64,000 nt of DNA from Escherichia phage PinkRuby. The stretch lies in the sequence record PP925839.1; one strand, 5' to 3'. The number at the start of each line of letters is the position of its first letter. Positions within the stretch are counted from its first letter, which is position 1. Of the stretch, positions 39,906 through 40,912 are shown in pieces. Position numbers and translations under genes: made by a program. The notes beneath the pieces are model-generated. The model made no database searches. It saw only the letters and a program-made list of their open reading frames with translations, and was not told where the DNA came from.

Positions 39906-40148
39906 TCAAACAGACTTTTTCACAGTTTTCCAATCAGCTTTAAACTGATCAACATCAGAATGGTAAATCCAGAATCCTGCGCTTTCTCCATCCTCATAAA
40001 GAGGGCATCCATCGCATTCATCTTCCCATCCCATATCACGCAAAAGACGTTCAGCTTTTTCAACGAGTTCAGAATCTTTACCGATGATATTAAAATACCA
40101 TTTACCTTTAACTTCTGAATCTTTGATGCTCTGACGTTGTAATCTCAT
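39906..40148 (-). CDS. Hypothetical protein
   Basis: 80-aa ORF with AAGGAG SD; own early promoter cassette. Confidence 0.55.
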   Translation of the reverse strand: MRLQRQSIKDSEVKGKWYFNIIGKDSELVEKAERLLRDMGWEDECDGCPLYEDGESAGFWIYHSDVDQFKADWKTVKKSV

Positions 40149-40173
40149 TTTATTCTCCTTAGTTGATAGGGTA

Positions 40174-40203
40174 ATAGTATCACACTACTACCCTTCTGTA
40201 AAC
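40174..40203 (-). promoter_or_regulatory. T4 early-type promoter cassette (GTTTACA-N18-TACTAT)
   Basis: Motif match; shares gtagttgatagggtaatagta leader with sites at 58112 and 61415. Confidence 0.5.
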
Positions 40204-40565
40204 TACTTTTTGAAAGTTTTTCGCAAAAGTTCAATGATTTCATCTACATTGTTTTCGTCTACAATGCAGTGAATTTTTGTTACGCCAGAAACCTTGTCTT
40301 CTATTTCATCTTCAGAAGTCGGTTCTTTATACTCACGAAAACAATGAAATTCATCTTCGCAGACGTTGAAGTAAAAATGCTTTCCATTGGCGCATTCTAC
40401 GTGTTTTACTACTTTAAATCCATCAGCAAAGAAAACTTCTTTAACTTCAAACCATCCGCCATTTTCTTGAATAGCTTTAACTATTAATGAATTAGAACGC
40501 GGGCGATAATTAATAAATGTATCAATAAGTCTTGGAACAAGTTCGTACTTTTTATCAATATACAT
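40203..40565 (-). CDS. Hypothetical protein
   Basis: 120-aa ORF ending at the -35 of the downstream promoter cassette. Confidence 0.5.
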   Translation of the reverse strand: MYIDKKYELVPRLIDTFINYRPRSNSLIVKAIQENGGWFEVKEVFFADGFKVVKHVECANGKHFYFNVCEDEFHCFREYKEPTSEDEIEDKVSGVTKIHCIVDENNVDEIIELLRKTFKK

Positions 40566-40608
40566 TATGTTTTCCTCATTTTAATAGGGCTTGATAGCCC
40601 CTCGATAA

Positions 40609-40839
40609 TTACTGTTCAATCAATCCCATGTAAAATTCTGCATCTTCAGCATCCATACCATCACAGTATTCATTAGCCATAAATCGTTCAAGAACTTCTA
40701 AAGGACCTTCAATAACAATAGAAAAATTGCAATAATTGGGATCATCATGAATACTTGTGATACTAAGTTCAGGATAACGATTACGAATAATTTCTTCAAT
40801 ATATTCAAAATCAACGATGTCAATATCAACTTTAGCCAT
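40609..40839 (-). CDS. Hypothetical acidic protein
   Basis: 76 aa from ATG 40839 with AAGAGGAAA SD (track ORF starts 21 nt upstream without SD). Confidence 0.5.
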
Positions 40840-40882
40840 ATTGTTTTCCTCTTTAATCATCAGCAGTATTGCCGATAGTTGT

Positions 40883-40912
40883 ATAGTACCACAGTATGCT
40901 TTGGTTGTAAAC
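40883..40912 (-). promoter_or_regulatory. T4 early-type promoter cassette (GTTTACA-N18-TACTAT)
   Basis: Motif match; upstream context ttttttcacaaaacggtttacaaccaaagcat shared with sites at 58150 and 61960. Confidence 0.5.

Follow-up and report, generated by a model that had tools for sequence, protein, structure and literature searches.

The interval between frd and gene 32 of Escherichia phage PinkRuby, examined here within a 64,000-nucleotide (nt) stretch of its sequence record (PP925839.1; hereafter the window), carries five small open reading frames (ORFs) and two early-promoter cassettes. The window belongs to a T4-like coliphage (Tequatrovirus), and the locus is very probably a conserved early-gene cluster of T-even phages, in which the ORFs that T4 does not have reflect loss in T4 rather than gain here, and in which the repeated cassettes are known T4 early promoters that have been swapping short patches of sequence. 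The orthology and positions of the genes, the mosaic pattern of the cassettes and a remnant of the missing segment in T4 are demonstrated by the comparisons described below. In the arrangement proposed, minus-strand transcription would run through five small accessory genes (frd.3, frd.2, frd.1, a DUF7247 gene and ORF81) and continue into frd and td, driven by two sigma-70-type T4 early promoters, one lying just past the gene 32 terminator and the other overlapping the end of frd.2.

All genes of this locus lie on the minus strand. A preliminary description of the window had counted five ORFs of 81, 110, 80, 120 and 76 amino acids between frd and gene 32, and only three at that place in T4; all five were recovered, and the three of T4 are frd.1, frd.2 and frd.3. 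Proceeding from gene 32 towards frd, they comprise the orthologues of frd.3 (76 residues, 40609-40839), frd.2 (120 residues, 40203-40565, a T2-type allele) and frd.1 (80 residues, 39906-40148), followed by ORF110, the DUF7247 gene (39563-39895), and ORF81 (39306-39551).

The pattern GTTTAC-N18-TACTAT occurs on the minus strand at 40174-40203, 40883-40912, 58126-58155, 61430-61459 and 61936-61965, coordinates that had been given exactly in the preliminary description. All five sites fit the T4 early promoter, with a -35 element GTTTAC(A), a -10 element TAnnnT, 17 bp from TTTACA to the -10, an A/T-rich upstream tract and, at 5/5 sites, TG preceding the -10; the consensus GTTTAC(N14)gtggTAttaT is quoted in GenBank record OL960580 from Liebig & Ruger 1989 and Miller et al. 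2003. Each is positionally orthologous to a T4 promoter site. They differ from T4 early promoters at large in forming a subclass with the -10 sequence TACTAT and one of two leader types. Promoters with TACTAT number 5 in the window and 14 in T4, and in 12 of those 14 the leader is of either type or a near variant. The parts of this subclass are the A/T-rich upstream tract, the -35 GTTTACA, a TGn-extended -10 TACTAT and a leader ending CTATCAACTAC, then a GGAG Shine-Dalgarno sequence. The GenBank record of phage SA21RB, which has the same five ORFs and was annotated independently, places T4 early promoters at both sites of the frd-32 interval, and T4 frd.3 RNA is among the abundant phage transcripts capped with nicotinamide adenine dinucleotide (bioRxiv 10.1101/2024.04.04.588121).

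The cassette preceding frd.1 (40149-40228; T4 orthologue at 146143) has its A/T-rich tract within the end of frd.2, whose stop codon finishes on the G of the -35 GTTTAC (40203-40198); its extended -10, TGaTACTAT, lies at 40179-40174 and is followed by the leader TACCCTATCAACTAAGGAGAATAAA up to the ATG, with a predicted transcript start near 40167. The cassette preceding frd.3 (40840-40937; T4 orthologue at 146875) consists of the upstream tract TTTTTTTCACAAAACG, a -35 at 40912-40907, the 18-nt spacer AACCAAAGCATACTGTGG, the -10 TACTAT at 40888-40883 and a 43-nt leader, and over 73 bp it is 97% identical to the T4 motA cassette. The remaining three are the motA cassette (58085-58206, minus strand; T4 163673), the ndd.4 cassette (61402-61484, minus strand; T4 166807), situated upstream of a 37-residue ndd.4-like ORF (61288-61401), and a cassette downstream of denB (61909-61990, minus strand; T4 167086), which is predicted to drive an 87-residue ORF, ORF87 (61645-61908). 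No convincing hairpin was seen in the leader on inspection by eye, which involved no folding calculation.

By their sequences the five sites are a mosaic family of exact shared modules. An identical 20-nt leader, TACTATTACCCTATCAACTA, is found at 3 sites (expected 0.01) and TACTATACAACTATCRGC at 2, and 3 sites have the upstream tract TTTTCACAAAACGGTTTACA without a mismatch (expected 0.03). Upstream tract and spacer are common to the frd.3 and motA cassettes, with 27/30 matches in the core; one leader type occurs at frd.1, motA and ndd.4 (17-18/20), and the other at frd.3 and the denB-downstream cassette. The motA cassette thus combines the upstream tract and spacer family of frd.3 with the leader type of frd.1. 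The preliminary description was right that two of the small ORFs each have a cassette and that the cassette sequence, including the leader, recurs at motA and in the ndd-denB region as modules extending beyond the hexamers, but the recurrence is a patchwork. The two local cassettes, which had been described as near-identical, match each other at only 40/75 positions (core 19/30, spacer 7/18, leader 8/20), compared with about 35/75 as the background for early-promoter pairs in the window. A second paralogous family was also observed, in which the minus-strand early promoters 15988 and 31778, 16 kb apart, have an identical 18-nt spacer, AAGTCCCTCGTGTTGTGT, and near-identical leaders; the same pair is found in T4, at 123093 and 136336.

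A signal of exchange lies in the spacer of the frd.3 promoter. In the window it is identical at 18/18 positions to the spacer of the T4 motA promoter, and it matches the spacer of the T4 frd.3 promoter at 9/18. Compared with T4, T2 and T6, 9-10 of the 18 spacer positions differ, as against 15-17 of 300 in the flanks (Fisher p 5e-7 to 6e-8). Three spacer types occupy this orthologous site: the motA type, in the window and in phage teqskov; AAGCATAAAGCTTTATGG, in T4 and Sa45lw, which is also the spacer of T4 promoter 55384; and ATCCTTGTyCTTCCATGG, in T2, T6 and three IMG/VR contigs, which is also the spacer of T4 promoter 70696. The motA promoter of the window (58085-58171) is a rare allele with the spacer end TTCCATGG and the leader TACCC; its leader matches T4 site 73572 at 16/16 positions and T4 motA at 12/16, and the allele is found at 95% identity or more in only 7/331 records, while the T4-type allele is present at 99% or more in 339. 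In upstream tract and spacer, none of the six window promoters outside the TACTAT class has a better match in T4 than its orthologue; in the leader of promoter 15988, the paralogous site 136336 is slightly better than the orthologue (15 vs 14 of 16).

A generic early-promoter consensus, kept by selection for function and involving no exchange between sites, would account for such resemblances only with difficulty, and we consider it improbable. It draws on the background-level similarity of the frd.1 and frd.3 cassettes, on the functional nature of the -35 box, the TG-extended -10 and the A/T-rich tract, and on the G-poor leader, which could be selected for efficient translation. However, the spacer is evidently unconstrained, given three unrelated alleles at the orthologous frd.3 site, each of them 17-18/18 identical to the spacer of a different T4 promoter elsewhere; differences are concentrated about tenfold in the spacer over the flanks; and exact 20-nt leaders recur far above chance expectation. 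The alignment of cassettes that had been suggested as a check therefore shows a similarity in excess of the promoter consensus, with leaders shared exactly at some sites.

Instead, the pattern fits short-patch ectopic conversion between cassettes. As elements of 70-75 bp, the cassettes could provide dispersed homology through which the recombination machinery of the phage itself moves short patches from one to another, and the same recombination may create insertions and deletions (indels) in the slot directly behind them. Whether the TACTAT-class cassettes of T-even phages evolve in concert, by frequent short-patch ectopic gene conversion that transfers spacers and leaders as modules among loci separated by tens of kb, seems to us an evenly balanced proposition. 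If this were true, the frd.3 promoter would segregate at least three spacer alleles in nature, each copied from a different paralogue (motA, the T4 55.4-kb site and the T4 70.7-kb site), and the cassettes would shuffle regulatory strength and initial-transcript sequence besides gene content.

Elements of this general kind have been described in T4-type phages, including the T4/PST pair, as promoter-early stem-loops (PeSLs; Arbiol 2010, PMC2839356; Comeau 2014, PMC4122927). Those papers cover ORF indels and chimeric PeSLs, and population-level spacer swapping is not among their topics. The window promoters fit the consensus TTTACW-N17-TAYWAT published for the T4/PST pair (PMC4122927), with an A/T-rich tract upstream and a Shine-Dalgarno sequence and small-ORF ATG downstream; indels adjoin some of the cassettes, and the ndd-denB cassettes fall in the region of a published example (Fig. 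6A, PMC4122927). At frd.3 and motA there is also an upstream stem-loop, in both cases a strong terminator (40962-40944 and 58206-58185, respectively). The former is the intrinsic terminator of gene 32, with a seven-pair stem (6 GC pairs) and a T-run, which is conserved in T4, T2 and T6 and doubles as the stem-loop of the frd.3 PeSL. At the frd.1 and ndd.4 cassettes, by contrast, no stem-loop is present and the promoter overlaps the final part of the preceding ORF, and after denB a possible weak hairpin was seen by eye that the scan had missed. Other differences from published PeSLs are that the indel of ORF81 and ORF110 is not PeSL-flanked, and that the clearest signal here is patch exchange within the promoter, in spacer and leader, rather than ORF gain or loss. 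On sequence grounds, the full PeSL definition would thus apply only in part. The analogy with integron gene cassettes (drawn in PMC2839356) holds in that small ORFs are gained and lost at a slot beside a repeated, expression-providing sequence, but here there is no integrase and no attC, and exchange presumably proceeds by general homologous recombination or microhomology.

Boundaries of indels or replacements are found at the frd.1 cassette (a 22-codon ORF in T4 and T6, and an 86-residue ORF, ORF86, in Sa45lw) and at the denB-downstream cassette (ORF87), as well as at promoters 28453, 24986/24556 and 15988; comparison with related phages revealed none at the frd.3 or motA cassettes. The junctions lie in leader or Shine-Dalgarno repeats. 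In T4, for example, direct repeats of the form CTAA(T)GGAGAA.A.AAAATG flank the 22-codon ORF that follows the frd.1 promoter. ORF87 (MKFKFYYAKHK..., minus strand) is lost in T4 (about 167018-167039), where an 8-codon in-frame fusion, MKIAEIEL, remains; the T4 leader at this remnant has been copied from other cassettes. Elsewhere, a 175-residue ORF (27866-28393, minus strand) is inserted between early promoter 28453 and cd.2, and in T4 the same promoter runs directly into cd.2.

Several features of these data tell against the interpretation favored here. A clear upstream stem-loop is present at only 2/5 cassettes. Of the ten small-ORF indels that distinguish the window from T4, five abut a cassette (permutation p 2e-5), but this null placed indels at random positions, and a much weaker association would be expected with a null restricted to intergenic junctions. 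An IMG/VR scan for the frd.3 promoter pattern returned 3 loci, too few for population counts, and allele-specific BLAST against GenBank phages, used in its place, assigned about 87, 87 and 308 records to the three spacer types; these counts are approximate, as some full-length matches of 88% identity may represent another type. Which cassette acted as donor and which as recipient in the spacer swap is suggested by allele frequencies, not by phylogeny, and early transcription of the frd-32 cluster is a prediction from sequence alone. In regard to the earlier proposal that shared cassettes represent the published architecture of modular shuffling, the cassettes are indeed of the PeSL kind and half of the indels adjoin one, but ORF81 and ORF110, discussed next, have none.

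The ORFs without a T4 counterpart are ORF81 and ORF110 (39306-39895), which adjoin frd. They lie outside the interval 39906-40912 to which the preliminary description had drawn attention, and no promoter cassette stands on either side of them. The gap in T4 corresponds by BLAST to window positions 39323-39838 (516 bp). The 71-bp spacer between frd.1 and frd in T4 can be resolved as ATGTATGTCATTGAAATTATCCAAGTAAGCATTCGTTTTCAATTAAAATAG|GATTTACGTAATG, in which ATGTATGTCATTGAAATTATCCAAGTAAGCATTCGTTTTCAATTAAAATAG is the decayed start of ORF110, comprising its Shine-Dalgarno sequence, ATG and 16 decayed codons (a 17-codon stub), and GATTTACGTAATG, joined to it, is the last 17 nt of ORF81. Since T4 retains this decayed 5' stub of ORF110, the difference represents a deletion in T4. 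The junction indicates, as far as sequence can, that T4 probably deleted 516 bp at a microhomology of 3-4 nt, that no cassette was involved, and that nothing was gained in this phage. T4 is known to delete and amplify DNA via microhomologies of 2-10 bp, and experimentally evolved T4 makes similar deletions (PMC9391042).

The converse, that the lineage of this phage acquired both ORFs by insertion and T4 retains the ancestral state, is very unlikely. T4 is the reference genome and has neither ORF, and the slot between frd and frd.1 is variable, with only ORF81 in T2 and an unrelated 113-residue ORF in Sa45lw. Against this stand the two remnants in the 71-bp T4 spacer, for the first of which the Pfam match to the DUF7247 gene begins at residue 1; the 5' stub of ORF81 kept in Sa45lw, with its start codon mutated; and the occurrence of DNA matching the T4-missing segment in 457 records, of which 220 match at least 80% of it and hence both ORFs. 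The five-ORF layout is present in more than 200 GenBank phages. Region 39300-41000, which contains the DNA of the five ORFs, is 98.1% identical to phage teqskov and is covered to at least 80% in 318/578 matching GenBank phage records. In the reading of loss by T4, the latter is a reduced reference at frd-32, having lost the DUF7247 gene and ORF81, as well as ORF87 elsewhere, so that features extra relative to T4 are not to be read as recently acquired.

The three ORFs nearer to gene 32 are the orthologues of frd.1, frd.2 and frd.3. Frd.1 has 95% amino acid identity to its T4 counterpart, and frd.1 DNA is found in 740 phage records; Frd.2 is 64% identical to T4 and 89% to the T2 allele, and Frd.3 is 83% identical to T4 and 96% to the Sa45lw allele. 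The proposal that the cassette-preceded ORFs of 80 and 76 residues, and by extension that of 120, are accessory genes recently imported by promoter-cassette shuffling can be set aside almost entirely: although cassettes with shared leaders do precede the first two, exchange of PeSL-flanked ORFs is documented in T4-type phages (PMC2839356, PMC4122927) and the slot directly behind the frd.1 promoter is variable (the 22-codon ORF in T4 and T6, with the 86-residue ORF of Sa45lw just upstream of the promoter), all three ORFs occur in T4 in the same order and with the same promoters, belong to the Pfam families DUF5417, FRD2 and Phage_FRD3, and, in the case of frd.1, recur in those hundreds of records. 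The recent acquisition suggested in the preliminary description is accordingly replaced by orthology at the T4 positions.

The comparison with T4, T2 and T6 that had been recommended there confirms that the interval varies, but it places frd.1, frd.2 and frd.3 among the conserved elements, with only ORF81 and ORF110 absent from T4. In the slot between frd and frd.1, T4 is empty apart from the ORF110 stub; T2 has ORF81 only, ORF110 having been removed between two Shine-Dalgarno/ATG regions; T6 has ORF81 and a 119-residue DUF7247 allele of 66% identity to ORF110; Sa45lw has the unrelated 113-residue ORF, with the dead ORF81 stub, and the 119-residue allele; and the window has ORF81 and ORF110. 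The slot of the frd.1 promoter holds the 22-codon ORF in T4, T6 and Sa45lw, the last with the extra 86-residue ORF, and is empty in T2 and the window. The frd-32 interval is thus plastic, but the events between frd and frd.1 took place without cassette involvement. Compared with the window, the T4 locus (NC_000866, 145.1-147.9 kb) is alike in gene order, strand, the two early promoters, the gene 32 terminator and the frd.1, frd.2 and frd.3 orthologues. It differs in lacking ORF81, the DUF7247 gene and an ORF between td and frd, in having the 22-codon ORF behind the frd.1 promoter and segG beside gene 32, and in the spacer of its frd.3 promoter.

The 22-codon ORF (MFAPYIMAAVMLVCLYLLIKAC) encodes a hydrophobic peptide, has its own Shine-Dalgarno sequence and lies between the frd.1 early promoter and frd.1 (at about 146019-146089 in T4); it is unannotated in the T4, T6 and Sa45lw records. 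SA21RB has the same 139-bp gap at this position, judged by gap length only. A GC-rich hairpin, GGGCT-ATCA-AGCCC on the minus strand, lacking a T-run, is located at 40587-40600 between frd.3 and frd.2, and the SA21RB record annotates a terminator at the corresponding site.

Family assignment of the five ORFs by Pfam and PHROG showed four of them well above the Pfam gathering cut-off (bits against cut-off): Frd.2 in FRD2 (E 4e-33; 114.3/29), Frd.3 in Phage_FRD3 (E 1e-37; 128.8/28.1), Frd.1 in DUF5417 (PF17438, E 2e-32; 111.7/23.9) and ORF110 in DUF7247 (PF23905, E 1e-43; 148.8/27). The fifth, ORF81, corresponds to phrog_3183 (E 1e-42). The earlier statement that no ORF has a recognisable motif was therefore mistaken for four of the five. 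ORF81 is acidic (isoelectric point 4.05), predicted to be helical and 97.5% identical in T2 and T6; its family is narrow, with 8 clusters, each at least 79% identical, confined to close relatives. Frd.3 is likewise strongly acidic. DUF7247 is a small, phage-only family, for which a profile search of 1.84 billion representative proteins recovered only about 9 small members; two long low-complexity proteins that matched the profile were discounted as artefacts, since they also match numerous Pfam families unrelated to one another. A weak RelB-like Pfam match on Frd.3 (E = 0.059 over 18 residues) was regarded as noise. Searching the PDB by sequence with each of the five ORFs gave nothing below E = 0.29. 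AlphaFold2 models of ORF110 (17 sequences) and ORF81 (9 sequences) reached predicted local distance difference test scores of 46 and 52, respectively, too poor for a fold search, and Rfam over 38300-42100 yielded a single chance match, sub-threshold. An LSm-like fold has been predicted for the Frd.2 family, a Frd.2 amber mutant is viable (PMC12152347), and a CRISPRi-ART screen (PMC11879866) scored Frd.2 as a fitness gene whose function is unknown. Our working inference is that the small proteins of the cluster are dispensable early accessory proteins.

Two of the genes, frd.2 and frd.3, have the structure of biallelic mosaics. Frd.2 alleles with about 50% difference over the rest of the protein have identical final segments of some 30 residues, encoded where frd.2 overlaps the upstream part of the frd.1 promoter, and in Frd.3 allelic differences are limited to about 13 residues in a central block.

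Hundreds of sequenced T-even phages have this gene set in the same order and with its promoters, and the cassette architecture has been published as PeSLs; in these respects the locus was already known, and in the form flagged in the preliminary description the frd-32 finding matters little. The only mildly new element is the well-resolved swapping of spacers and leaders among promoter cassettes, a modest addition. The frd.3 and motA promoters nevertheless offer a clear-cut case from nature of promoter cassettes at separate loci exchanging patches, usable for studying regulatory evolution driven by short homologies in T4-type phages, and the strength of spacer alleles.

The locus is anchored upstream by gene 32 (40985-41893, minus strand), encoding the single-stranded DNA-binding protein (97.7% amino acid identity to T4 gp32), beyond which lies gene 59 (41993-42646, minus strand), and downstream by frd (38722-39306, minus strand), encoding dihydrofolate reductase (86% identity to T4 Frd). 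Between frd and an intron-free td (37449-38309, minus strand) lies a 115/119-residue ORF (phrog_1928; 38354-38713, minus strand), 99-100% identical in T2, T6 and Sa45lw; T4 has no such ORF, and td and frd overlap there. The homing-endonuclease genes and introns of T4 are all missing from the window, namely segD, segE, the nrdB intron with I-TevIII, nrdB.1 with mobE, the td intron with I-TevI, and segG, and the corresponding junctions relative to T4 are clean (442/503, 5557/5577, 33899/33902, 34575/34631, 37760/37761 and 41956/41992). The distal tail-fibre region (gp37/gp38, 50138-54675) is 68-78% identical to T4 or unalignable.

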